Source of the DNA: a virus | Lineage: Duplodnaviria > Heunggongvirae > Uroviricota > Caudoviricetes | IMG/VR virus record: IMGVR_UViG_2657244943_000008 | Location: 1 to 10,588 of that record | DNA: 10,588 nucleotides | Reading direction: 5' to 3' (one strand) | Shown: positions 1 to 10,588 of the stretch, one piece after another | Position numbering within the stretch: position 1 is the first letter of the stretch | How the letters are laid out: each line of letters starts with the position of its first letter | The notes under the pieces: generated by a model | Databases searched by the model: none | What the model was told of the DNA's origin: nothing | Seen by the model: the letters and a program-made list of their open reading frames with translations, nothing else | Program-made: the position numbers and the translations under genes

Positions 1-366
1 TGATGCATATGATGGCATATCAGGTATCTGATTTTCCCCTGTTCCCACATTTCGTTTTGCCGCTTCTCCCAAACCAAGGTTTTCGAGAGCCGTTTTCACC
101 GTGCCATCCGATTTGATATCGCCAAACGGATTCTTGCGGCTTAACAGCAGCGCACGAAGCGCTGTAAGCAGCTGGTCATGCCGCCCCTTCTCTAGGCTGG
201 CACCGGATGCCTCCACAACACTGCAAAGTTCCTCCTGCAACATGTCAAAGTAGTCATCATCCAGATCGGTGGCAGGTGTGCCGGTCTGGGGGTTACCACG
301 GGTAAAACCGTTCTTACCCGCGCCGAACTTATCCTTCTGCGCGGTTTTCGTGTCTATACGATGCAT
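1..366 (-). CDS. Phage tail-fibre-like protein, N-terminal ~122 aa; gene continues beyond the left edge of the window
   Basis: Open minus-strand frame from ATG at 366-364 to position 1 with no stop (so absent from the complete-ORF track). GGAG lies 6 nt upstream of the ATG. Translation begins [55 protein letters not shown] and contains ...[25 protein letters not shown], a Gly-rich motif I recall as typical of enterobacterial phage tail-fibre proteins. Family assignment is from memory only. Confidence 0.45.
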
Positions 367-478
367 GGATTACTCCGGATACCCGGGCAGGAAGCGCCCC
401 GTCGTCATACTCACCGGCCTGAATGACCTCAACACGCATACCGTCCGGTGACCATTTCAGATCTTGTTTCAGGATCAT
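332..478 (-). CDS. Small hypothetical ORF (48 aa) between the Rz-like gene and the tail-fibre-like gene
   Basis: ATG at 478-476 preceded by GGTGA; translation [49 protein letters not shown]; overlaps the start of the 1..366 gene by about 32 nt in another frame. No recognisable family. It could be real, or the frameshifted 5' part of the downstream gene. Confidence 0.2.
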
Positions 479-500
479 GATTCTTCACCCGTCAGAACAG

Positions 501-520
501 GGGGCGCGGTTCCGCGCCCC
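501..520 (-). terminator. Perfect GC-rich hairpin (GGGGCGCGG-TT-CCGCGCCCC) 7 nt downstream of the Rz-like stop codon
   Basis: 9-bp perfect inverted repeat seen directly in the sequence. On the minus strand it is followed by CTGTTCTGAC, which is only a weak U-tract, so intrinsic-terminator function is uncertain. It could also be a protein-binding palindrome. Confidence 0.35.
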
Positions 521-527
521 TGAGTGA

Positions 528-878
528 TTACGCCGCTGCAATCTTCAGCAGTTTGATGGCCTGCGAATCGACCAGCATCCCGCCGGTGCGCTTGGTGGTA
601 TAAAAACCGACAAACGGTTTATTGGTGTACGGGTCACGCAGAATGCGGGTGCCGATACGGTCAACGATGGTGTAACCCCGTTTGAAGTTACCAAATGCAA
701 TGGCTTTCGCATCAGCGGCGATATCCGGCATCTGTTCGTTTTCAGCGATACCGTAACCCGCCAGAGAGGACGGCTGCCCCAGCTCCAGCCCCGGACGCCA
801 CAGATAGTTAACCGCCCATGACAGACAGACGATGATGCAGATAACCAGAGCGGAGATAATCGCGGTTAATCTGTTCAT
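528..878 (-). CDS. Rz-like inner-membrane protein (i-spanin-like N-terminal anchor with a divergent C-terminal domain)
   Basis: The ATG at 878 overlaps the TGA of the endolysin gene (ATGA), which is the lambda R/Rz arrangement. The first ~24 aa (MNRLTAIISALVICIIVCLSWAVN) closely match the lambda Rz N-terminal TM anchor as I recall it. The remaining ~90 aa (…GYGIAENEQMPDIAADAKAIAFGNFKRGYTIVDRIGTRILRDPYTNKPFVGFYTTKRTGGMLVDSQ…) do not resemble the Rz coiled-coil domain. Confidence 0.6.
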   Translation of the reverse strand: MNRLTAIISALVICIIVCLSWAVNYLWRPGLELGQPSSLAGYGIAENEQMPDIAADAKAIAFGNFKRGYTIVDRIGTRILRDPYTNKPFVGFYTTKRTGGMLVDSQAIKLLKIAAA

Positions 879-1351
879 ACCTCAATCTCTCTGACCATTC
901 CGCCCGCTTCTTTGAATTTTGCAATCAGGCTGTCAGCCTTATGCTCGAACTGACCATAACCAGCGCCCGGCAGTGAAGCCCAGATATTGCTGCAACGGTC
1001 GATAGCCTGACGAATATCACCGCGATCAATCATCGGTAAAGCGCCACGCTCTTTAATCTGTTGCAGTGCCACAGCGTCCTGGCTTTTCGGAGAGAAGTCT
1101 TTCAGGCCAAGCTGCTTGCGGTAAGCATCCCACCAGCGTGAAAGAAGTTGATAACGGCCTGCAGCTGTTGATTTGAGTTTCGGGTTTAGCGTGACAAGTT
1201 TGCGAGGGTGATCGGAGTAATCAGTGAAGAGTTCTCCACCGACAATAACGTCATAACCGTGGTTACGTGTCGGTTGTCGCCCGTTATCCGTTCCCTCTGA
1301 CCATGCCACCATATCCAGGAAAGCTTTACGCTGGGAATTTAGTACCTGCAT
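875..1351 (-). CDS. R: Endolysin, lambda R-type lytic transglycosylase (158 aa)
   Basis: Translation MQVLNSQRKAFLDMVAWSEGTDNGRQPTRNHGYDVIVGGELFTDYSDHP…REIEV is nearly identical over its full length to lambda gpR as I recall it (same 158-aa length, catalytic Glu in the WSEGT motif). A strong AAGGAG RBS lies 6 nt upstream of the ATG, inside the end of the holin gene. Confidence 0.92.
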   Translation of the reverse strand: MQVLNSQRKAFLDMVAWSEGTDNGRQPTRNHGYDVIVGGELFTDYSDHPRKLVTLNPKLKSTAAGRYQLLSRWWDAYRKQLGLKDFSPKSQDAVALQQIKERGALPMIDRGDIRQAIDRCSNIWASLPGAGYGQFEHKADSLIAKFKEAGGMVREIEV

Positions 1352-1354
1352 AAA

Positions 1355-1681
1355 TTACTCCTTAGAGCCACCAAACTTGTTACCGATTACTCTCATTGCA
1401 GCCCCACGAATAGCATCAACACCGATCAGCCCCACCCCACCACCAATGGCAACAGATAGTGATTTAGGCCATCCGACATACTCAAGAGCGGATGCAAAAG
1501 TCAGCGTCAGAGCGCCACAGAGTAGAATTTCGAGTGTTTTTCGCTTCCAGCCGCCACCACCGCCAAAATAGGCAATACGTAAACCAGCCATAACAATCGA
1601 CATAATCACTGCGCCCAGCGGTGTGTCTCCACGCCACCAGCTCTGGACCAACTCCAGCCATGTATTTGGGTTATGAGGCAT
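1355..1681 (-). CDS. S: Holin, class I with three predicted TM segments (108 aa)
   Basis: Sits immediately upstream of the endolysin on the same strand. Three hydrophobic stretches (GAVIMSIVMAGLRIAYF, LEILLCGALTLTFASALEYV, LSVAIGGGVGLIGVDAI) and a charged C-terminus, the same architecture as lambda S. GAGGTGAGAG lies upstream of the ATG at 1681. Sequence similarity to lambda S is modest. Confidence 0.75.
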   Translation of the reverse strand: MPHNPNTWLELVQSWWRGDTPLGAVIMSIVMAGLRIAYFGGGGGWKRKTLEILLCGALTLTFASALEYVGWPKSLSVAIGGGVGLIGVDAIRGAAMRVIGNKFGGSKE

Positions 1682-1822
1682 TTGTAGTTATCTCTCACCT
1701 CGCTGATACAGCAGGTGCAAATTGAGGAAACATCATGTACCGCAAATCAGAAGCGGAAACGTCAAAGAAGCCGAGTCAATGGATAACTGCGGGATAGGCT
1801 AGGACCAAGGAATCCCCAGACC

Positions 1823-1855
1823 CAGAAACGACAAAACCCGCTCGATGGCGGGTTT
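1823..1855 (-). terminator. Intrinsic-terminator-like hairpin oriented on the minus strand (possible tR'-like late-operon terminator)
   Basis: Plus strand shows AAACCCG-ctcgatgg-CGGGTTT at 1834-1855. On the minus strand the stem is followed by TTTTGTCGTTTCT. It lies ~150 bp upstream of the holin start, at the boundary between ~50% GC phage DNA and the AT-rich cassette. Confidence 0.45.
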
Positions 1856-1900
1856 AAGCTGTGTGGCGAAGTAAGCACACTTAACAGATTACGATATTTT

Positions 1901-1929
1901 TTGCGTACGCGTTAGTGTTTTGATAGAAT
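1901..1929 (+). promoter_or_regulatory. Sigma70-like promoter for the two-gene cassette (TTGCGT, 17 bp spacer, TG-n-TAGAAT extended -10)
   Basis: -35 TTGCGT at 1901-1906, 17-bp spacer, TG at 1921-1922, -10 TAGAAT at 1924-1929. This would give a ~37-nt leader to the ATG at 1973, which has GGGA 6 nt upstream. Motif match only, no experimental support. Confidence 0.45.
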
Positions 1930-1972
1930 TTTCAGCCACATAAAAATTCATTCTTATAATTCGGGATATATA

Positions 1973-3148
1973 ATGGATATAACTTGTTTAGAATGTGGCA
2001 ATGTTCTTGACGACCCAACTGTAGCTTGCGATAAATGCGGTGCCACGCCTCATGTTGTAGTGCTGGGCAAACAATCGTACTTTCCTATTGGTGCTGTAAC
2101 AGCAAATCTTGAAAAAAATGATTCAAGAGCATTTGATTATCGATTAGGTGAAGTTTGGGATCTAAAAAATGAAGTCACATCTGAATTCATAACCAGAATT
2201 GAGAAAAAATTTAGCCGAAAAAACAAATTTCATAACTTCCTAGACTCAGATCACAACCCTTCATCCATTCCTACGATCCTAAAAAAATACATTAATAAAA
2301 ATAATGAATTCATTGATTTATCTAGAGCTATAATAGAGAAGCTTAAACATAATGCTAATAACGAATCGAGAGTTGCCCAACTTCAGGGGGGGAGCGTTGT
2401 TTTCATCCACTATAAGTCTACCGAACCAGAGGATTTGGGGAAACTTCTAATCGTAATGGTTGATAAACAAAGCGCCTATGACTTTGATTCGGATAAGTTG
2501 ACCCCAACAAGATTAAATCCAATTAATACCGATGCCTTACGGCAGGCTGCGATGTTCGATTTAACTTTATTCGAAGCCAGTTATCCAGAAAACAAGGGTG
2601 ACTCATATGTACATTTCTTGCAAGGTAAATCTAAAAGCGATTTTTTCAAAGACTCATTAGGTTGCCGACATGATTCGGACAATAAAAGAAGCATTCAGCA
2701 ATTATTCAGTGCTATAGATATTTTTGCTAGTAAAAACTCACTCGGTCGTGTACTGCGTGATACTATTGACAATGAAGTTAAATCCTTACTGGAAAAAAAA
2801 TCAAAAGATAAACACGGAAATAAGTCCGTTAAGATAGAGGATATTTCAAAAATAATTGACTCATGCCTGACTGATTCACACAAATGTAAGGGAACGTTTG
2901 TCGATTTTGTTAATCTTAATGGTTTCCAGATTGACCCTCAATTTGAACCAACTCCTAAAGCAGCTGAAAGCGCGCTTACAATTGAAGTGGCAGATAACGA
3001 CAATAATTTTAAGTTGAAAATAATGCGTGGAGCTATTGGAGACGAAAAGTCAAATAAGCCTGTAATTCTCACTGACAACAAATGCGAAATTGTGATAAAA
3101 TTGAGTCAGGCAAATTATGATGAACTCAAAAGATATAGAGACAGCTAA
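1973..3148 (+). CDS. Zinc-ribbon plus NdpA/YejK-like nucleoid-associated-domain protein (391 aa); cassette gene 1
   Basis: N-terminal CxxC…CxxC (CLECGN…CDKCG). The central and C-terminal region aligns by eye to E. coli YejK/NdpA as I recall it: GGSVVFIHYKS…LLIVMVDKQ versus GGIVLFCHYRY…LLVAVLNN, and YVHFLQGKSKSDFFKDSLG versus [22 protein letters not shown]. About 30% GC against ~50% in flanking phage genes. Confidence 0.6.
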   Translation: MDITCLECGNVLDDPTVACDKCGATPHVVVLGKQSYFPIGAVTANLEKNDSRAFDYRLGEVWDLKNEVTSEFITRIEKKFSRKNKFHNFLDSDHNPSSIPTILKKYINKNNEFIDLSRAIIEKLKHNANNESRVAQLQGGSVVFIHYKSTEPEDLGKLLIVMVDKQSAYDFDSDKLTPTRLNPINTDALRQAAMFDLTLFEASYPENKGDSYVHFLQGKSKSDFFKDSLGCRHDSDNKRSIQQLFSAIDIFASKNSLGRVLRDTIDNEVKSLLEKKSKDKHGNKSVKIEDISKIIDSCLTDSHKCKGTFVDFVNLNGFQIDPQFEPTPKAAESALTIEVADNDNNFKLKIMRGAIGDEKSNKPVILTDNKCEIVIKLSQANYDELKRYRDS

Positions 3149-3150
3149 TA

Positions 3151-4365
3151 ATGACAATTGCTGATGACTTATCAAGATTAGCGCAGATTATTAACGGAGC
3201 CTCAAGCAGAGTTGAGGGCTACTACACTGTCATAACTCTTGAAGAAAGCATTGTTATTGTAAATAGTTCTGAAATAATTAGACTGTTACAATCTATAGGT
3301 TATAAAAAGGCAACAACCTGCATCGAAAATAATGAAATTTGGCTAGATCGCCAAGCTTCATCTTGGGATGATGCTATAATTTATGAGAATGTTGAGTCTT
3401 TTTGGTCTAGAGTAAACACCCAAAACGCTCTTCCGAAAAATTATATCATCGGAACGCCGTTAATACTCCCTACTTCTAAGAATGAAAGCATCGAAAAAAT
3501 CCATATTTTCTTTATGTGGAAAGATATCCTTTCATTAATTTCTGATCATCATAACAGTGACTGCTCTGTCTTATTTTTCACCAATGAAGACAAAAGTTAT
3601 ACAGTCGAACTCACGCATTTTTTACAATATAGCGAGATTAATCGCTTATCGAACTCGTCTCTTAAATATGAAATTATAAAGGAGCTTCTCGACACAATAA
3701 AAATCAATGATTTACACAAAAGCGAGCGCAAGCTCGTTATACGCTCAGCCATAAACGAAGTATTTAAAGCAAATGGTACGTTCAATTTCTTTGACTTGCT
3801 TAACTCTACTGAACTCGTCAGGAAAAAATATGATGAACTATATGAGATTTACACAAAGAGGTTTTCTGTAAATAAAATTCTTAACGAACTCGATGAGAAA
3901 AATCTTGAGTTCACGAGTAAAATTAACGAATTCATATCATCTAATCAGACAAAAGCATTGACTATTCCCGGTGCATTAATAGCAGCTGGTGGCTTAGTGA
4001 AGGCTAATGAAACAACCGAAGCAATATTGATTATCGCAGGACTTTGGATGATAAAAAAAGTCAATTACATTTCTATTGAGATATTCAATGAAACATTCGA
4101 CAACTTACGTTCTCGAGTGGAGTCCGCTTTCGATAAGTATTTAAAGTTTGAAGAAAATAAAGAAATCAAAGATAATGCAGATAGTATTAAGAGTAGCATT
4201 ACAGGTTTGATTGATAAAGCTAAAAAAAGGATGAGAACTGTTAAATATCTCGCATCAGCCATGTTTTATGGAGGCCTTATTTACGTTGGATATAAACAGT
4301 TCCCAGTCTTTTTTGAAAAATCGGCAGTAAATCTATTTTATTTTTTATGCCATACTATAAGCTAA
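3151..4365 (+). CDS. Hypothetical protein with C-terminal hydrophobic (membrane-anchoring) segments (404 aa); cassette gene 2
   Basis: ATG at 3151 is 2 nt after the gene-1 TAA (TAATAATG), indicating translational coupling. The N-terminal ~260 aa are soluble with no motif I recognise. The C-terminal part has hydrophobic stretches ALTIPGALIAAGGLV, AILIIAGLWMI and VKYLASAMFYGGLIYVGY. Its 3' end overlaps the Q gene convergently by 21 nt. AT-rich. Confidence 0.6.
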   Translation: MTIADDLSRLAQIINGASSRVEGYYTVITLEESIVIVNSSEIIRLLQSIGYKKATTCIENNEIWLDRQASSWDDAIIYENVESFWSRVNTQNALPKNYIIGTPLILPTSKNESIEKIHIFFMWKDILSLISDHHNSDCSVLFFTNEDKSYTVELTHFLQYSEINRLSNSSLKYEIIKELLDTIKINDLHKSERKLVIRSAINEVFKANGTFNFFDLLNSTELVRKKYDELYEIYTKRFSVNKILNELDEKNLEFTSKINEFISSNQTKALTIPGALIAAGGLVKANETTEAILIIAGLWMIKKVNYISIEIFNETFDNLRSRVESAFDKYLKFEENKEIKDNADSIKSSITGLIDKAKKRMRTVKYLASAMFYGGLIYVGYKQFPVFFEKSAVNLFYFLCHTIS

Positions 4366-4701
4366 CATTGCTAAACAGCCATCAACAAACCCCATTGCAG
4401 TTTGCAGTTCCTTCCTAATTGTGCCATCAGAGCATTTTCTCTTCTTCGCAATAGTGCGTAATGAGATACCGATAACAAAGTGGGCGATGATGAGCTCATA
4501 TTCATCTGGTTTATACCTTCTCAACCGAGCCACACAACTGTCTATCATGATGCCTTCGTCATCATCACACTGAATCCGTGACTTTTTGCCATGAGGTAAA
4601 AGTCCCTTGAAACCAGCCGCTATCGGCTGCCAGTCCACTCCGCTATTGTCTGAAGCAGCCCAAGCTCCCCAACGATCCATTACTTCATACATATCACGCA
4701 T
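4345..4701 (-). CDS. Q: Late-gene antiterminator Q, short QuuD-like family (118 aa from the ATG at 4701)
   Basis: Translation [35 protein letters not shown]…CDDD… resembles DLP12 QuuD as I recall it ([35 protein letters not shown]…CDDD…). The track ORF begins at a TTG at 4716; the ATG at 4701 with GGAGAAAG upstream is the more likely start. Confidence 0.8.
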   Translation of the reverse strand: [118 protein letters not shown]

Positions 4702-4887
4702 CAACTTTCTCCACAAAATCAGGCCAGCACACCAATTGCCAGCGCACGATCGATAAGACCAGGGACAATTACTGACTCTTGCCGGTGAGCCTGACGGAAA
4801 ACTCCGCGCAGCAGGTCATTAATATCGTTCTTAATTAACTGATTATTTATCTCATCACTGAATATCTTTATATAGTGAGGACTTATT

Positions 4888-5712
4888 ATGTCTCAGAACT
4901 TAGACGCAACCGCAATTAATCAAATCCATGCCCTTATTTCTGCTCAGGGTGTTAATGAAATTATCAGTAAGATTGGTGCCGACGCAGTGGCATTACCTGA
5001 AAATTTCCGCATTCATGATCTGGAAAAATTTAATTTAAATCGCTTCCGTTTCCGTGGCGCGCTTTCCACTGCCTGCATCGATGACTTTATCCGTTATTCT
5101 AAAGATCTTGCAGATGAAGGCACCCGCTGCTTTATCGATGCCGATAATATGCGTGCCGTCAGTGTTCTTAACCTGGGTACTATTGATGAACCAGGTCACG
5201 CAGATAATACCGCCACTCTCAAACTGAAAAAGACAGCACCGTTCTCTGCACTGTTGTCTGTTAACGGCGAGCGTAACTCCCAGAAGTCACTGGCAGAATG
5301 GATTGAAGACTGGGCCGACTACCTTGTGGGCTTTGATGCTAATGGTGACGCCATTCAGGCAACAAAAGCGGCTGCGGCAGTCCGTAAAATCACAATTGAA
5401 GCGAACCAGACTGCTGATTTTGAAGACAATGACTTCAGCGGCAAACGCTCCCTGATGGAGTCTGTCGAAGCGAAGACCAAAGACATTATGCCAGTGGCAT
5501 TTGAATTTAAATGCGTTCCGTTTGAAGGTCTGAAAGAACGTTCTTTTAAATTACGCCTCAGCATTATCACTGGCGATCGTCCTGTACTTGTTCTGCGCAT
5601 TATTCAGCTGGAGGCTGTGCAGGAAGAAATGGCTAACGAATTTCGCGATCTGCTTGTTGAGAAATTCAAAGACAGCAAAGTAGAAACCTTTATTGGTACT
5701 TTCACCGCCTGA
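4888..5712 (+). CDS. yfdQ: DUF2303-family prophage protein, YfdQ-like (274 aa)
   Basis: Length and N-terminus ([14 protein letters not shown]…) match my recollection of E. coli CPS-53 YfdQ. It is followed by a YfdR-like HD-domain gene, as in CPS-53. GAGG RBS 8 nt upstream. Function unknown. Confidence 0.6.
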
Positions 5713-5724
5713 TTTGATTACTGC

Positions 5725-5747
5725 AAATGCCCCTGCGGGGGCATTTA
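5725..5747 (+). terminator. Hairpin AAATGCCCC-tgc-GGGGCATTT followed by AT, between the yfdQ-like and yfdR-like genes
   Basis: 9-bp perfect inverted repeat with a 3-nt loop, 13 nt after the yfdQ-like stop. The U-tract is short (ATTTAT), so it may be a partial terminator or attenuator. Confidence 0.4.
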
Positions 5748-5840
5748 TGGAAACGTAATTAACTCAATAATCGCCGGATGGTGAGGGCTTCCTTTTACCA
5801 GAATTCAGTGCGGTGCAGCGCAAATAACGTGGAGAACAAA

Positions 5841-6377
5841 ATGTCATTTATTAAAACTTTTTCTGGGAAGCATTTTTATTATGACAGGATAAATAAAGAC
5901 GACATCGTTATTAACGATATCGCGGTTTCCCTTTCAAATATCTGTCGCTTTGCAGGACATCTTTCACACTTCTACAGCGTCGCCCAACATGCGGTGCTTT
6001 GCAGCCAGTTGGTGCCGCAGGAATTTGCTTTTGAAGCGTTAATGCATGATGCAACAGAAGCATATTGCCAGGATATCCCCGCACCACTGAAACAACTTCT
6101 TCCTGACTATAAACGGATGGAAGAAAAAATAGACGCCGTAATCCGTGAGAAATACGGGTTACCTCCTGTTATGAGCACGCCTGTGAAATATGCCGATCTC
6201 ATTATGTTGGCAACCGAGCGTCGCGATCTCGGGCTTGATGATGGCTCTTTCTGGCCTGTGCTGGAAGGTATCCCGGCAACAGATATGTTCAAAGTTATTC
6301 CACTGGCACCGGGCCATGCCTACGGGATGTTTTTGGCACGCTTTAAAGAGTTACATACGATACATAAACAATCCTGA
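5841..6377 (+). CDS. yfdR: HD-domain phosphohydrolase, YfdR-like 5'-deoxynucleotidase (178 aa from the ATG at 5841)
   Basis: H…HD motif (HLSHFYSVAQHAVL…ALMHDATEAY) typical of the HD superfamily. The ATG at 5841 has GGAG 8 nt upstream and gives 178 aa, matching the YfdR length I recall. The track ORF starts earlier at 5778 without an RBS. Confidence 0.7.
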   Translation: MSFIKTFSGKHFYYDRINKDDIVINDIAVSLSNICRFAGHLSHFYSVAQHAVLCSQLVPQEFAFEALMHDATEAYCQDIPAPLKQLLPDYKRMEEKIDAVIREKYGLPPVMSTPVKYADLIMLATERRDLGLDDGSFWPVLEGIPATDMFKVIPLAPGHAYGMFLARFKELHTIHKQS

Positions 6378-6432
6378 CAGTGAAATTAACCAGTGAAATA
6401 GTTTTGTAGCAAAAGAAATGAGGTTATCAAAA

Positions 6433-6678
6433 ATGCTTCAAATGCTGACACTTGAAGAATGGGCTTCTGAAAAATACAGAAGTAATCCTCCAAGTGTGTC
6501 CACATTGCGTCGTTATGCTAAGCAGAATTTATTTTGTCCACCGGCCATGAAACAAGGCCGGTTATGGCGAGTGCGTGAGGACGCCGAGTTAGTTGGAGAG
6601 CTGGTAACACCAGTAATTAAGAAAAATGACTCATTACTTTTGCAACGGATTTTGAGTGATGGCAGCCAGACCGCGTAA
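6433..6678 (+). CDS. xis: Excisionase, lambda Xis-like (81 aa from the ATG at 6433)
   Basis: MLQMLTLEEWASEKYRSNPPSVSTLRRYAKQNLFCPPAMKQGRLWRV parallels lambda Xis (…LTLQEW…RSLETVRRW…FPPPVKDGREY…). GAGG lies 9 nt upstream of the ATG at 6433; the alternative start at 6418 has no RBS. Overlaps the int start by 20 nt as in lambda. Confidence 0.75.
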   Translation: MLQMLTLEEWASEKYRSNPPSVSTLRRYAKQNLFCPPAMKQGRLWRVREDAELVGELVTPVIKKNDSLLLQRILSDGSQTA

Positions 6679-7786
6679 AAATAATGTTTCGGTCCCTAAC
6701 TTATATCCGCTTTATAGTAGGAAAGTAAATAAAGTCTATTGGCGGTATAAGCATCCAGTAACAGGGAAATTTCATGCGCTAGGAACGAACGAAACCGAAG
6801 CCATCGCTATTGCCACTGAAGCCAATACGCGACTGGCTGAACAAAGAACTCGGCAGATTCTGGCCATCAGTGACAGGATAGCAACCAGCAAAGGGAAAGC
6901 AATCACAACGTCAACCTGGTTAGATCGCTACCAAGCGATCCAGGATGACCGACTGAAAAGTGGTGATATAAGACTCAACACTTATAAGCAGAAAGCCAAA
7001 CCAGTATCCTTACTTAGGGAACGAGTAGGAATGAAGTTGATCTCAGCCGTTGATGTCAGAGATATAGCACAATTGCTTGACGAGTATATCGCTGCCGGGC
7101 AGCCGAGAATGGCGCAAGTCGTAAGGTCTGTATTGATCGATGTATTTAAGGAAGCACAGCATTATGGCGAAGTTCCGCCAGGGTATAACCCTGCTCTTGC
7201 GACGAAGCAACCCAGACGGAAAATCACCCGTCAACGCCTCAGCCTCGAAGAATGGAAAAAAATCTTCGATATCGCAGATGCCAGTCATCGTTACATGGGA
7301 AATGCCATGCTCCTAGCATTGGTCACTGGACAGCGTTTGGGGGACATATCTAAAATGAAATTCAGCGATATTTGGGATGACCATCTACATGTCGAACAGG
7401 AAAAGACTGGAAGCAAAATCGCAATTCCTCTTTCTCTTCGCCTCAATACGATTAACTGGAGTTTACGCGATATAATAGCCCGCTGCCGTGACTATGCAGT
7501 CAGTCCATACCTAGTGCATTTTTTCCGTTCAACTTCACAAGCAGAACGTGGGGCACAGGTTAAATCCAATACATTGACGATGAACTTTAGCAAAGCGCGA
7601 GACTTGGCCGGAATTGATTGGGGTGATGGAACTCCAGCAACTTTCCATGAACAAAGATCTTTATCTGAGCGCCTTTATAGGGAACAAGGGATTGATACGC
7701 AAAAACTACTCGGACATAAATCTCCTAATCAGACAGCTAGATATCATGATGATCGTGGAAAAGATTGGGTAACTCTAGCAATTTGA
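6659..7786 (+). CDS. int: Tyrosine integrase, lambda Int family (375 aa from the ATG at 6659)
   Basis: Full-length similarity to lambda Int as I recall it, including the catalytic signature: R in LALVTGQRLGD, H-x-x-R in FHEQRSLSERLY, and H plus Y in LLGHKSPNQTARYHDDRG. The track start at 6656 is a GTG; the adjacent ATG at 6659 is more likely. Confidence 0.92.
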   Translation: MAARPRKNNVSVPNLYPLYSRKVNKVYWRYKHPVTGKFHALGTNETEAIAIATEANTRLAEQRTRQILAISDRIATSKGKAITTSTWLDRYQAIQDDRLKSGDIRLNTYKQKAKPVSLLRERVGMKLISAVDVRDIAQLLDEYIAAGQPRMAQVVRSVLIDVFKEAQHYGEVPPGYNPALATKQPRRKITRQRLSLEEWKKIFDIADASHRYMGNAMLLALVTGQRLGDISKMKFSDIWDDHLHVEQEKTGSKIAIPLSLRLNTINWSLRDIIARCRDYAVSPYLVHFFRSTSQAERGAQVKSNTLTMNFSKARDLAGIDWGDGTPATFHEQRSLSERLYREQGIDTQKLLGHKSPNQTARYHDDRGKDWVTLAI

Positions 7787-7871
7787 TTTTTATATTTTTA
7801 TTAAAAATTAAAAAATTCAGACGCATCATATCAAAAATTTATTAGTAAAATAGATAACTAATATTTTTCTT

Positions 7872-7888
7872 GGGGGGAGGAGCCCCCC
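7872..7888. other. GGGGGG-aggag-CCCCCC palindrome embedded in an AT-rich region between the int stop and the convergent membrane-protein gene
   Basis: 6-bp G/C stem with a 5-nt loop; a T-tract lies upstream on the plus strand and no clean U-tract follows on either strand. It could be a weak bidirectional terminator or part of the prophage attachment region, which is expected within ~100-150 bp of the int stop. Confidence 0.3.
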
Positions 7889-7920
7889 GCACATTATATT
7901 GAAGATTAATAACTGATATA

Positions 7921-8886
7921 TCATTTCTTAAATTTAAGAATTTCTTTTAAGGCTTCTACTATATTTTTATCCCCATCCATGCTAATTTTCTCCTTCTCAA
8001 GAGAAACCGTAGTCTGCCCTTTTTCAAGAACAAAATTACGTTCTGTAGCCATGAGATTTTTAATAACCTCACCCATTAAGTCTTCGTTTCTAATGCCCTT
8101 AAGAAACTTTATCGCCAAAACTTTGGAATCGATATTGGTAAGCTCATTTTGAAAATACTTGACCTCATCAAAACCATTTTTGTACAACTTCAAGAAGAAA
8201 TAAGCAAATAGTTCAACGACAATTACAAATGATAATTTGGGGGCCATGTGAAGTATATATTCAAGCTTATCATTTGTGTTAATAGCATTTGTAACTGAAT
8301 ATCCAAGGTAAAGTATCCCACCAAAAGCAATAAATGCACCTAAAACCAGATTAACCCCACCACGTCTATTTAATCTATTTATTTCATTTTCTAAACGATA
8401 TACAATATCATTATAGTGTTTACTAATTTCTATTTGATTTCTAAACGAATTTATATCATTTTTCAAACTTAAATCTGCAGCCAAGAGAGTATTGCCTACA
8501 ATCTTTTTTTTAGCATTATCGATCAACTCTTGCCTTTCTTTTGATGTGAGTAAAACACCATTTAAATCTTTCGAATCATTTGTAACTAGTTGATTAAACT
8601 CTTGCTTTAAGGAGTCTAATTCTGACTTTAACTCTTCATATGAGTTAACATTCTTGTTTTTACTTTCACCTATTCCTTTATTAACATAATTTAATAAAAA
8701 TGCTGCCATAAAAGTTAAAATCAGAGTTGCAATAAAGAAACTATTTTCATCTTGAAGTATTTTAGCAACAGTGGAAAAATAACTTACGAGAAGAGGCTGA
8801 GCATTATAAAGCCCCATTCCTAACAAAACTGCAATTGCCGTACCTAAAACGAACCTTACTTCTTGTCTTTTTAGTAACCTATTCAT
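7921..8886 (-). CDS. Four-TM membrane protein with central coiled-coil and C-terminal soluble region (321 aa); candidate membrane effector
   Basis: Hydrophobic segments VRFVLGTAIAVLLGMGLY, FFIATLILTFMAAFLLNYV, VNLVLGAFIAFGGILYLGY and LSFVIVVELFAYFFLKLY. The linker between TM2 and TM3 (ELKSELDSLKQEFNQL…RLENEINRLNRR) is heptad-like. About 28% GC. Weak GGTG RBS. No confident family assignment. Confidence 0.6.
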   Translation of the reverse strand: MNRLLKRQEVRFVLGTAIAVLLGMGLYNAQPLLVSYFSTVAKILQDENSFFIATLILTFMAAFLLNYVNKGIGESKNKNVNSYEELKSELDSLKQEFNQLVTNDSKDLNGVLLTSKERQELIDNAKKKIVGNTLLAADLSLKNDINSFRNQIEISKHYNDIVYRLENEINRLNRRGGVNLVLGAFIAFGGILYLGYSVTNAINTNDKLEYILHMAPKLSFVIVVELFAYFFLKLYKNGFDEVKYFQNELTNIDSKVLAIKFLKGIRNEDLMGEVIKNLMATERNFVLEKGQTTVSLEKEKISMDGDKNIVEALKEILKFKK

Positions 8887-8970
8887 TATGACACCATATG
8901 TTATTATTTAACGTTTTATTAAATTCAAAATACTGCCCGAGATTTTAATACTCATAACAAAATAAGAATT

Positions 8971-9000
8971 AATATACAAAATTTTTCATACTACAAGCAA
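8971..9000 (-). promoter_or_regulatory. Candidate sigma70 promoter for the 4-TM gene (minus strand: TTGCTT, 18 bp spacer, TATATT)
   Basis: Minus-strand -35 TTGCTT (plus 8995-9000) and -10 TATATT (plus 8971-8976) with an 18-bp spacer, about 85 nt upstream of the ATG at 8886. AT-rich context, so motif matches are weak evidence. Confidence 0.3.
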
Positions 9001-9004
9001 GGCT

Positions 9005-9090
9005 TTGATAAATTGTTTTGATAACGATTTGATAACCGTTAGAAATCTAATAATAAAAACGGGAGCCATCAGACTTCCGTTTTTGATAAC
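9005..9090. repeat. Four direct copies of TTGATAA(C) upstream of the 4-TM gene promoter
   Basis: TTGATAA at 9005-9011, TTGATAAC at 9018-9025, 9029-9036 and 9083-9090; the middle pair is spaced 11 bp (one helical turn). One copy on the minus strand reads tATCAAatcgTTA, matching the IHF WATCAANNNNTTR consensus. Possible operator or architectural sites. Confidence 0.4.
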
Positions 9091-9448
9091 CCGGAGCCTA
9101 GATTTGGCTACCCCAGCAGGAAGATGCAACGTCCACGATTGTCACAAATCAGGCTGGCTCGAGGCAGAATGGCGACTGTGAGGGAGAAACGAAAGTTCAC
9201 ACTCGTTCTCACTGCTGATGGGGGGTTCACTAACAATCTCAAGCACTAATTAATGGACGAAACTCTACACAAAGCCCCATTTTGTAGGAAAACTGGTAAC
9301 GGATTAGTAATACTACCCGGCCAGAACATGACCGACCGGGTAAAAAAATATCCTGACGCTACTAAGCCTTTAAGATTTGACTAACCTAGTGCTTACATTA
9401 TAGAGAACTGCTTATGCCTTCTAAATTATAGAGTAAAAATACTCACCA

Positions 9449-10588
9449 CTAAAATACAACTTGCTTCCTTAGTAAATCACCTCTAGCATTTGAGTAATAT
9501 TCAGTCGAATTGCCAGTAACTTCCCGGAGTACTTCTGTTACAAGGTTATTTAGTATTCCCGTAAGTTTAAGAAACTCTCCATATGAATTAGGTTTCTCAA
9601 ATATCTTTCTGGTACCGTTCGGCACATCGAGCTGCATTGCAGCATCATGATCCTGGGCTAAGTGATTTAGCCAGCGGTGAGTCTCAACAAGTACAGCAAG
9701 TTCATAGTATGTACTATGACGGAGATTATTAGCATCTGCATGGTACATTAGTGAAGCAATATCATAGCTGCTTAGATCAATACTCGAACCTTCGTCTCCA
9801 CTGTCTGCTTTCAGGGTTTTGAGCATGCGAATTGATTTTCTTAATCCACCATTGCATTGATCGCATTTGTCTTTGATACGTTGCATGTGGAGGAACGGTT
9901 CATTGTAGATACGCTCTCGTTTGTTTTTATCAATTATGGTAACTCCACGATGTTCTTCTTTTTTTGTGAGTTGGTACTCTTTCGTATCCCACCATATGCC
10001 TGGCACTACATCAACTTCTCTTTGAAGACTCCCCCCCGTTATTCTCAAGGACTTGGCGTTATTATCGTCAACCTGAGCAGCAGGAAATGTCATTTTTAGA
10101 GCATCTCGAGCTGCACGCCTAAGTTCAATGATGACGTCTCGGCCATCTTTCTCAGCTGCACTATAGCTGCCAACTCCACCGCTATCATACATAAGCATCT
10201 GAGTATCAATAATTAAAAGATCTACATCACTGAAACCTTTGATATGGATATCTAGGGGAACAGAACCTTGTACCCGAAAATCTAGGTTTAGGTCTAATTT
10301 CTTAGTCAGCTGATTTTCAATACGATACGCGGTTTCGAATGAGATCTCTGTATAGCGGGGGTCAACTGGTTGCATCGCACCAATGACATACCGGATAGCT
10401 GAATCGTCTCTTCCTCTAGACTCCCAACTTTCATTAAGCTCAAGAGCATCTTCAAGCAATGCATATTTTTCAAGGCCATCATATCTTTGATTACTCATTG
10501 ATTCTGTGGCTACTCGCAACTGATCATATGTCCCTTTACGACGTGACTTCATGCGTTCAATACGCGAACTATATGATGAATTAGACAT
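9449..10588 (-). CDS. Pol-beta-superfamily nucleotidyltransferase with cGAS/DncV-like (CD-NTase/SMODS-like) active-site motifs (at least 379 aa; start at the window edge)
   Basis: GS…D-x-D motif (RVQGSVPLDIHIKGFSDVDLLII) and a downstream third acidic motif REVDVVPG, resembling the [DE]hDhhP of OAS/cGAS/DncV-type enzymes. About 42-48% GC. The ATG coincides with the last base of the window, so the true N-terminus may lie further upstream. Confidence 0.55.
   Translation of the reverse strand: MSNSSYSSRIERMKSRRKGTYDQLRVATESMSNQRYDGLEKYALLEDALELNESWESRGRDDSAIRYVIGAMQPVDPRYTEISFETAYRIENQLTKKLDLNLDFRVQGSVPLDIHIKGFSDVDLLIIDTQMLMYDSGGVGSYSAAEKDGRDVIIELRRAARDALKMTFPAAQVDDNNAKSLRITGGSLQREVDVVPGIWWDTKEYQLTKKEEHRGVTIIDKNKRERIYNEPFLHMQRIKDKCDQCNGGLRKSIRMLKTLKADSGDEGSSIDLSSYDIASLMYHADANNLRHSTYYELAVLVETHRWLNHLAQDHDAAMQLDVPNGTRKIFEKPNSYGEFLKLTGILNNLVTEVLREVTGNSTEYYSNARGDLLRKQVVF

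Follow-up and report, generated by a model that had tools for sequence, protein, structure and literature searches.

A gene for a four-helix membrane protein beside a cyclase gene is a likely stand-alone cargo gene of e14-like prophages with a probable anti-phage role

Here, we analyzed a stretch of 10,588 nucleotides (IMG/VR virus record IMGVR_UViG_2657244943_000008, positions 1 to 10,588; referred to as the window), which gene calls and domain annotation identify as the integrase end of a lambdoid prophage, with a focus on a gene for a membrane protein (WP_057108767; the membrane gene) that is located between the integrase gene intE and a gene for a cGAS/DncV-like nucleotidyltransferase (CD-NTase; the cyclase). 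An earlier reading based on the letters of the window (the sequence-only reading) had likened the nucleotidyltransferase and the membrane protein to a minimal type I CBASS (anti-phage signaling based on cyclic oligonucleotides) or to a SMODS-SLATT-like pair. It had also allowed that the membrane gene could, instead, be an exclusion gene in its own right or belong to the prophage end. We favor, with moderate confidence, that an e14-like prophage carries the membrane gene as independent, single-gene cargo (a "moron") and that the gene encodes a probable membrane-acting anti-phage protein. The evidence for this interpretation comes from the composition of the neighboring CBASS cassette, the distribution of the two genes among genomes, the conservation of the region upstream of the membrane gene, and the position of the gene and its relatives next to prophage integrases.

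The CBASS cassette is complete without the membrane gene

The product of the cyclase gene matches the PADLOC Cyclase model PDLC00772 (E 6e-137), a GS...DVD motif is visible in its translation, its homologues have the PF26305 CD_NTase_C domain, and CdnE enzymes are its nearest relatives of solved structure. Directly upstream of the cyclase gene and just past the window edge lies cap15 (627 bp; 11882-12508 on the minus strand in L001 coordinates, beyond window base 10588), which overlaps the start of the cyclase gene by 8 nt. RefSeq labels this gene, which follows icd, as "Cap15 family cyclic dinucleotide receptor"; moreover, its product matches the PADLOC CBASS "2TM" effector model (E 9e-81) and is ~86% identical over the beta-barrel to the solved Cap15 of Yersinia aleksiciae (PDB 7N34/7N35). 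Cap15 is the commonest transmembrane (TM) effector of CBASS; it consists of two TM helices and a cyclic-dinucleotide-binding beta-barrel, and it oligomerizes and damages the inner membrane, while a type I CBASS is made up of one cyclase and one effector (PMC10419184). This is the composition of the cassette, in which the CD-NTase has one adjacent effector and which is flanked by icd and a 367-bp filler, such that ancillary genes of the Cap2/Cap3 or HORMA/TRIP13 kinds are absent. Because Cap15 and the cyclase already constitute a type I system, the cassette is complete without the membrane gene and represents a type I system with Cap15 that was already known. The cyclase looks like an orphan only because the window edge cuts off cap15. 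In Y. aleksiciae (L096 2206-5140), the Cap15-CD-NTase cassette adjoins the integrase of a P2/186-like prophage, so in another genus, too, this CBASS cassette is cargo of a prophage end.

The cyclase and the membrane gene do not travel together

To assess co-occurrence in the forward direction, we searched 80 genome loci with relatives of the membrane protein, together with loci of closer relatives, for the cyclase and Cap15 using tblastn. A cyclase or Cap15 was detected in 3 of 94 loci of the membrane-protein family, all three being near-identical copies in E. coli. These copies are at least 99.9% identical and, thus, represent one event; among the 91 independent loci of the family, none contains a homologue of the cyclase or Cap15. 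In the reverse direction, homologues of the cyclase were identified in Y. aleksiciae (80%), Serratia marcescens (73%), Enterobacter bugandensis (62%), and Achromobacter (43%). All four are preceded by Cap15 with the same overlap, and none of these four loci has a membrane-family gene after the cyclase, the downstream genes being different and unrelated. The limits of homology point the same way: homology to the Yersinia CBASS cassette stops at 9461, ~10 bp short of the 3' end of the cyclase gene, while homology to the membrane-gene module of Enterobacter begins at 9081. From these separate limits, we conclude that the CBASS cassette and the membrane gene are separate modules.

As a further point, an AlphaFold2 model and profile scans revealed no nucleotide-sensing domain in the membrane protein, which is all-helical and has neither a SAVED domain nor the beta-barrel of Cap15. 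PADLOC gave no match to the membrane protein of the window, and among 140 members of its family the SLATT_1 model matched two, while the CBASS 2TM model matched two at E values of at least 0.15. The protein does possess four hydrophobic helices, a feature expected of a membrane-disrupting CBASS effector but not specific to such effectors.

Could the membrane protein, nevertheless, serve the CD-NTase as its effector, or as an additional or auxiliary one, in a minimal CBASS or SMODS-SLATT-like pair that the cyclic nucleotide activates? The gene follows that of a genuine CD-NTase on the same strand, CBASS often uses TM effectors (PMC10419184), no terminator is predicted in the gap between the two genes, and the three genes are together in all three E. 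coli genomes that have them, though as the outcome of one event. However, the cyclase already has a canonical Cap15 to which it is translationally coupled by the overlap, the two genes co-occur in neither direction outside one element, the membrane protein has neither a nucleotide-sensing domain nor an above-threshold SLATT match, and the two modules end at different positions. On this evidence, we regard an effector role in CBASS as highly improbable and are highly confident that the membrane gene is independent of CBASS. The pairing proposed in the sequence-only reading is, therefore, not supported: Cap15 is the true effector, and homologues of the two genes do not occur together beyond the three near-identical E. 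coli copies, which is the observation that reading had named as speaking against itself. Its alternative of an independent gene at the prophage end holds, in the form of a conserved attL-proximal cargo gene of icd-integrating e14-like prophages in several genera, and so do its doubts about an operon, as far as these concern the size of the gap and the difference in GC content.

The membrane gene has a conserved upstream region

The gap between the membrane gene and the cyclase gene, which had been estimated at ~560 bp, measures 562 bp and consists of a conserved region next to the membrane gene and a filler next to the cyclase gene (Table 1). Read toward the membrane gene, the former (9081-8887) is ~75% identical to the intergenic region between icd and the gene in Enterobacter orthologues. 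It holds a degenerate hairpin followed by a T-run, the counterpart of one that follows icd in Enterobacter, and this structure is a relic of the icd terminator; in addition, it has an AT-rich promoter-like stretch. The conservation with Enterobacter supports that this region may serve as the membrane gene's own upstream control region. A scan of the gap region for promoters gave two consensus matches, compared with 7.5 expected in shuffled sequence. Because matches are rarer than in the shuffles, promoter-like motifs alone are no better than chance; yet, there is one good sigma-70-like match, TTTAGA-17-TATAAT at 9425-9397 on the minus strand, which is directed at the membrane gene. Accordingly, the promoter-like motifs that the sequence-only reading had listed are borne out by a single good match, but not by any surplus of matches. 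The GC contrast that it had described has the stated direction but a smaller size, the membrane gene having 30.6% GC and the cyclase gene 41.1% instead of ~28% and ~45%. No intrinsic terminator was predicted in the gap (8887-9448) and, therefore, read-through from the cyclase gene is possible.

The conserved upstream region also contains three direct repeats of TTATCAAA at 9004-9035 with a spacing of 11-13 bp, and the motif occurs five times in the window compared with 1.0 expected, a further copy being located at 9082-9089 on the minus strand. The same triplet is present after icd in the e14 element of K-12 and in 343 other E. coli genomes. The strain from which the window originates has the triplet twice, after icd and before the membrane gene, such that the two blocks flank the CBASS cassette (the triplet elsewhere: L001 12816-12847 on the minus strand, and K-12 L094 1444-1475). 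We infer that the repeats are probably arm-type (P') sites of Int, and that the duplication of the block is probably the scar of recombination, or of tandem integration followed by deletion, that placed the CBASS cassette before an older membrane-gene module. Apparent tandem elements at icd in Proteus hauseri, described below, offer a model for how the duplicated attL block could have arisen.

The filler has no open reading frame (ORF) longer than 58 aa, is restricted to the three of 5,426 complete E. coli genomes that also have the surrounding DNA, and is without homology to the cyclase loci or membrane-gene loci of other genera. Two side observations concern the conserved upstream region. 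First, a mini-ORF runs into the start of the membrane gene (Table 1), and the string ATGGTGTCAT is kept in the Enterobacter orthologues and may represent a translational-coupling or ribosome-binding element. Second, the Rfam family STnc150, an Hfq-binding small RNA, gives a sub-threshold match at 8936-9091 on the plus strand (40.7 bits relative to a gathering score of 60; E 1.3e-6); this match overlies the attL-like block, and K-12 has an annotated small RNA, C0293, in the equivalent icd-proximal region.

The membrane gene and its relatives are located at prophage ends

The part of the window from 7700 to 10588 was found at 99.9-100% identity in only 3 of the 5,426 E. coli genomes. In all three, the gene order in the RefSeq annotation is icd, Cap15, nucleotidyltransferase, membrane gene, intE, and xisE, and icd stands 5 kb from intE/xisE. 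Because this order places icd, intE, and xisE together in all three genomes, the prophage is assigned as an e14-type element inserted at icd. intE marks the prophage end where the membrane gene is cargo, and the membrane gene and the cyclase gene both lie between attL and the integrase gene. Within the prophage, the membrane gene is thus placed between the 3' end of icd (attL) and intE, the position of an e14-type cargo gene. In the e14 element of K-12, the slot between icd and intE carries ymfD, ymfE, and lit, and Lit is a classical abortive-infection protease that excludes T4.

The same location was observed in other genera. In Enterobacter roggenkampii (79%), Enterobacter cloacae (57%), and Kosakonia pseudosacchari (60%), icd is followed by ~200 bp, the membrane gene, ~125 bp, and convergent intE/xis. 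This tight spacing between icd and intE in Enterobacter and Kosakonia leaves no room for a partner gene, and none of these three icd-linked loci contains a CBASS. The orthologue in Enterobacter sichuanensis (83%) is also located after icd and lies beside a gene for a TIR-domain protein. In Proteus hauseri (L113 5001-7752), a gene of the family is found at the right end of a prophage after the tail genes, with a 54-aa icd fragment behind it, beyond which lie a second e14-type integrase gene and an excisionase gene; this arrangement looks like tandem elements at icd.

More distant relatives provide further instances. An E. coli paralogue with 45% identity (P0077) is present in ~100 complete genomes, including UTI89, and in 303 blocks of the assembly collection. 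In the loci L089-L093 (gene at 7001-7996), it is convergent with the integrase gene of a different lambdoid prophage, which is inserted beside yjjG-rimI-holD; this is an independent, second instance of a family member adjoining a prophage integrase. Another paralogue is located at the right end of a prophage beside invertase and tail-fiber genes. Among the 80 diverse genome loci, 8 have a tyrosine recombinase within 8 kb, and clustering of neighboring ORFs across these loci revealed no conserved neighbor family; in distant taxa the neighbors include defense-type genes (TIR, KAP NTPase, PDC-S35, and AbiEii-like ATPase), integrases, transposases, and housekeeping genes. Taken together, we consider it very likely that the membrane gene is a prophage-end cargo gene.

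The protein is a four-TM inner-membrane protein of a large, uncharacterized family

The four-TM protein described in the sequence-only reading downstream of the same-strand nucleotidyltransferase is encoded by a real ORF with a product of 321 aa, and Kyte-Doolittle hydropathy places its four TM segments at residues ~12-32, 50-68, 178-198, and 216-236. Because its N-terminus is positively charged, an N-in orientation is assumed. An AlphaFold2 model based on an alignment of 140 sequences (predicted local distance difference test score (pLDDT) 84.8; predicted template modeling score (pTM) 0.68) has a cytoplasmic helix at residues 80-103, an unbroken helix at residues 115-199 that enters TM3, and a helix at residues 207-262 that leaves the membrane from TM4. 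The protein spans the inner membrane with four TM helices, and its cytoplasmic helices are long. Of note, its "coiled coil" label depends on these long helices and a weak leucine-zipper match.

The family to which the protein belongs is very large, with 465 close matches in a protein collection at 90% identity and 2,812 clusters at 50% identity with E values of at most 1e-3, including 1,486 with values below 1e-30. Among the 2,812 clusters, the top 150 by score are mostly 320-370 aa in length, and members are found in Proteobacteria, Bacteroidota, Acidobacteriota, Planctomycetota, and other groups. The protein matches phrog_5157 (function not assigned) over residues 46-320 (E 4.9e-75; P0077, E 6e-185). 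A tblastn search of a phage genome collection gave no match to the family, which is, therefore, seen only in prophages and chromosomes. In Pfam, NCBIfam, and PADLOC, nothing was above threshold for the window protein or for sets of 27 and 140 family members, and no NCBIfam DS model matched the membrane protein. Weak matches recurred among the 140 members to DUF2207_C (38 members), MotA_ExbB (14 members), and LeoBC (8 members), and look like effects of TM or coiled-coil composition. A sequence-profile search of the PDB yielded nothing beyond ATP synthase b, seipin, designed helical proteins, and MotA at E 1.6, and fold searches against solved structures only generic helical hairpins.

Conservation within the family is strongly modular and is highest in TM4 and in two cytoplasmic motifs that follow it; the consensus of the conserved parts is PRLSLV..IE.FAYFFL.LYK, KYFQNELTN, and TERNF.L.KGQTT. 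Residues R164, L180, G183, P216, K243, N247, E248, R283, and N284 are invariant, and N179, E225, and F230-Y235 are invariant or nearly so; E225, which is located within TM4, is kept in at least 90% of the members. By comparison, conservation is poor in the N-terminal TM hairpin and in the first cytoplasmic helices; among the icd-linked orthologues, identity is 76-91% in the core (residues 160-297) and only 20-29% in residues 1-69. We conclude that the family is large and uncharacterized, and new within the familiar kind of prophage-borne single-gene membrane immunity candidates.

Other features of the window

The features of the window are summarized in Table 1. intE and the membrane gene converge, and in the AT-rich spacer that separates their stop codons (7787-7920), no consensus terminator was scored.

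Table 1 Features of the window and their coordinates
Feature	Position	Strand	Length	Remarks
Lysis genes	528-1681	-		
Two-gene insert	1973-4365	+		
Antiterminator Q gene	4345-4716	-		
yfdQ- and yfdR-like genes				Followed by xisE and intE
xisE and intE	6418-7786	+		RefSeq names
intE, lambda-type integrase	6656..7786	+		Pfam Arm-DNA-bind_1 and Phage_integrase; RefSeq intE
Spacer between convergent stop codons of intE and membrane gene	7787..7920		134 bp	AT-rich, GC 24.6%; contains G6/C6 hairpin
Membrane gene	7921..8886	-	321 aa	WP_057108767
Mini-ORF	8897-8886	-	3 codons	ATGGTGTCATAA (ATG GTG TCA TAA); stop codon overlaps the ATG of the membrane gene (TAATG)
Conserved upstream region of the membrane gene	8887..9081	-	195 bp	
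Gap between membrane gene and cyclase gene	8887-9448		562 bp	
Filler between CBASS cassette and membrane-gene module	9082..9448	-	367 bp	43.8% GC
CD-NTase gene	9449..10588	-	379 aa	Start codon at last base of window

At the other end of the window, a 116-aa ORF (528-878, minus strand) joins an Rz-like signal-anchor N-terminus to the C-terminal end of a major capsid protein, and RefSeq calls both parts incomplete pseudogenes. From this fused ORF, we deduce that a deletion joined the lysis cassette to the head genes and that the prophage is defective. Of the two products of the insert at 1973-4365, one is a YejK-like nucleoid-associated protein with a zinc ribbon at its N-terminus and the other a 404-aa partner, and the pair matches the NCBIfam models DS1_1_antiphage (2e-135) and DS1_2_antiphage (3e-112). 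The DS-1 pair lies between the Q antiterminator gene and the lysis genes on the opposite strand, which is a classic slot for cargo genes. WP_000355468 is listed as a DS-1 gene with experimental validation in Table S6 of DefensePredictor (PMC13092281).

Discussion

What, then, is the function of the membrane gene? DefensePredictor lists WP_001080914, with the cluster representative WP_057108767, in its Table S10 as "Predicted novel defense gene" with a mean log-odds of ~10.2; of the 94 transcription units cloned in that study, 45% gave defense, and the validation rate rose with the log-odds (PMC13092281). WP_057108767 is the protein of the source strain of the window. Because of the low GC content, the position in a prophage cargo slot, and the high defense score, we suggest an accessory, phage-related role, and we regard an anti-phage function of one sort or another, for which the defense-type neighbors in some loci also speak indirectly, as reasonably likely.

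In our preferred interpretation, the membrane gene occupies the slot between the phage-supplied 3' end of icd (attL) and intE, convergent with intE, and the CBASS cassette with its 367-bp filler is a separate unit that lies between icd and the membrane-gene module. The upstream region of the gene would drive its expression in the lysogen, and the gene product would protect the lysogen against other phages at the inner membrane by superinfection exclusion or abortive infection. We speculate that the fast-diverging N-terminal TM hairpin together with the cytoplasmic helices may be the specificity or sensor part, that a signal may travel from there via the helix at residues 115-199 into the conserved TM3-TM4 hairpin, and that this hairpin, with its membrane-embedded Glu225 and the KYFQNE and TERNF motifs, may oligomerize and perturb or permeabilize the membrane. 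Blocking of genome entry would be less likely than abortive infection. A membrane-permeabilizing abortive mechanism specifically is a tentative proposal, which we put forward as possible but doubtful.

P22 SieA, HK97 gp15, and T4 Imm block phage genome entry from the inner membrane, and the membrane protein could similarly mediate superinfection exclusion of a non-abortive kind, in which entry of the incoming genome is blocked at the inner membrane and the host survives. Its integral inner-membrane location would be in agreement with this, and expression in the lysogen is plausible because the gene is located at a prophage end, has an upstream region of its own, and converges with int. Moreover, the N-terminal TM hairpin, including a short periplasmic loop, evolves fastest, which would fit contact with the injection machinery. 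By contrast, the top-conserved cytoplasmic juxtamembrane motifs and the membrane Glu resemble an effector or gating core rather than a passive block, no homology to a known exclusion protein was found in PHROGs or Pfam, and the family also occurs outside prophages in many phyla. We, therefore, consider exclusion of this kind unlikely. It could also be argued that the protein has a membrane role outside defense, either as a lysogenic-conversion or fitness factor or as a diverged, partner-less channel subunit of the ExbB/TolQ/MotA kind, and that its location in a prophage is incidental. The low GC content, the cargo slot, and the high defense score speak against this possibility, as do hhalign probabilities of only 0.2-11% against ExbB/TolQ/MotA; likewise, an ExbD/MotB/ZorB-like partner is not conserved, and none fits in the icd-linked loci. 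Such a role appears improbable to us.

Several points weigh against our preferred interpretation of the membrane gene as an independent gene for an anti-phage protein. The call of a defense gene depends on genomic context and a machine-learning score, and WP_057108767/WP_001080914 is outside the 94 units that were cloned in the DefensePredictor study (PMC13092281). Similarity to characterized exclusion or abortive-infection proteins was not found with PADLOC, Pfam, or NCBIfam, and the fold searches yielded only generic hairpins; a pore or permeabilization step is, therefore, purely conjectural. Many distant homologues lie beside housekeeping genes, so the family overall need not be defensive. 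The divergence of the N-terminus could reflect relaxed constraint rather than diversifying selection. Finally, co-transcription of the cyclase gene and the membrane gene is possible in the strain of the window.

Looking beyond the window, it is conceivable, and we say so with considerable reserve, that the membrane protein is the founding member of a very large, partner-less four-TM family of self-contained membrane immune sensor-effectors across many phyla. In such proteins, a hypervariable N-terminal hairpin would set phage specificity, and a TM3-TM4 core with a buried Glu, similar to ExbB/MotA but without a B subunit, would collapse membrane integrity or block entry; the gene would then be a standard attL-side immunity gene of e14-like prophages in several enterobacterial genera.

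More generally, our analysis corrects a tempting mis-annotation, in that a gene for a CD-NTase followed by a gene for a TM protein is not automatically a CBASS pair. Instead, a stand-alone module of 1.2 kb (~7787-9081) emerges that is conserved as cargo of prophages integrated at icd in Escherichia, Enterobacter, and Kosakonia. The module, to which an independent machine-learning screen gives a high likelihood of being defensive, belongs to a family of thousands of members. Should this be validated, the membrane gene would define a new single-gene membrane defense family, and the attL slot of e14 would be a defense hotspot that, depending on the strain, holds lit, CBASS, or the membrane gene.

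Comparison with known systems

The likeness to the Cap15 plus CD-NTase system of Y. aleksiciae concerns the neighboring cassette, in which the cyclase is 80% identical and the cap15-cdn order and the 8-nt overlap are the same; the membrane protein itself has no Cap15 beta-barrel and is never found with the cassette elsewhere. AbiZ of Lactococcus (DUF6161) is, like our candidate, a single-gene, membrane-associated protein. It acts with the phage holin to cause premature lysis and, according to a review, has no recognizable domain (PMC13064643), and it is the best match to a known defense protein reported by DefensePredictor using HHblits (probability 68.2, coverage 0.097; PMC13092281). Membership in the AbiZ/DUF6161 family is not supported: the match covers less than 10% of the protein (9.7%), the window protein is without a Pfam or PADLOC match, and AbiZ/DUF6161 is not among the 25 most frequently matched Pfam or PADLOC families shown for the 140 members at E values of at most 1.

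The A subunits of 5:2 ion-driven motors (MotA/ExbB/TolQ/ZorA; PF01618) have a similar topology, with two TM helices, a large cytoplasmic helical insert, two further TM helices, and a cytoplasmic tail; long helices run through the membrane in both, and marginal matches recur. The membrane protein differs in that it has no B-subunit partner (MotB, ExbD, TolR, or ZorB) and no Pfam match at the gathering score. Comparisons with TolQ, ExbB, and MotA by hhalign, singly and as a three-sequence profile, did not exceed 11%, and Foldseek E values were at least 0.7; all tests of membership in this family were, thus, sub-significant.

Among genes predicted by DefensePredictor, this exact protein cluster is listed, as a computational prediction only. 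With respect to genomic position, the closest parallel is the K-12 e14 slot with ymfD, ymfE, and lit. The gene content of that slot is unrelated, in that the membrane protein has no similarity to YmfE, the membrane protein of the equivalent slot, by hhalign and no peptidase is present; yet, the two slots share the same position, convergent with intE, and the same TTATCAAA triplet after icd.

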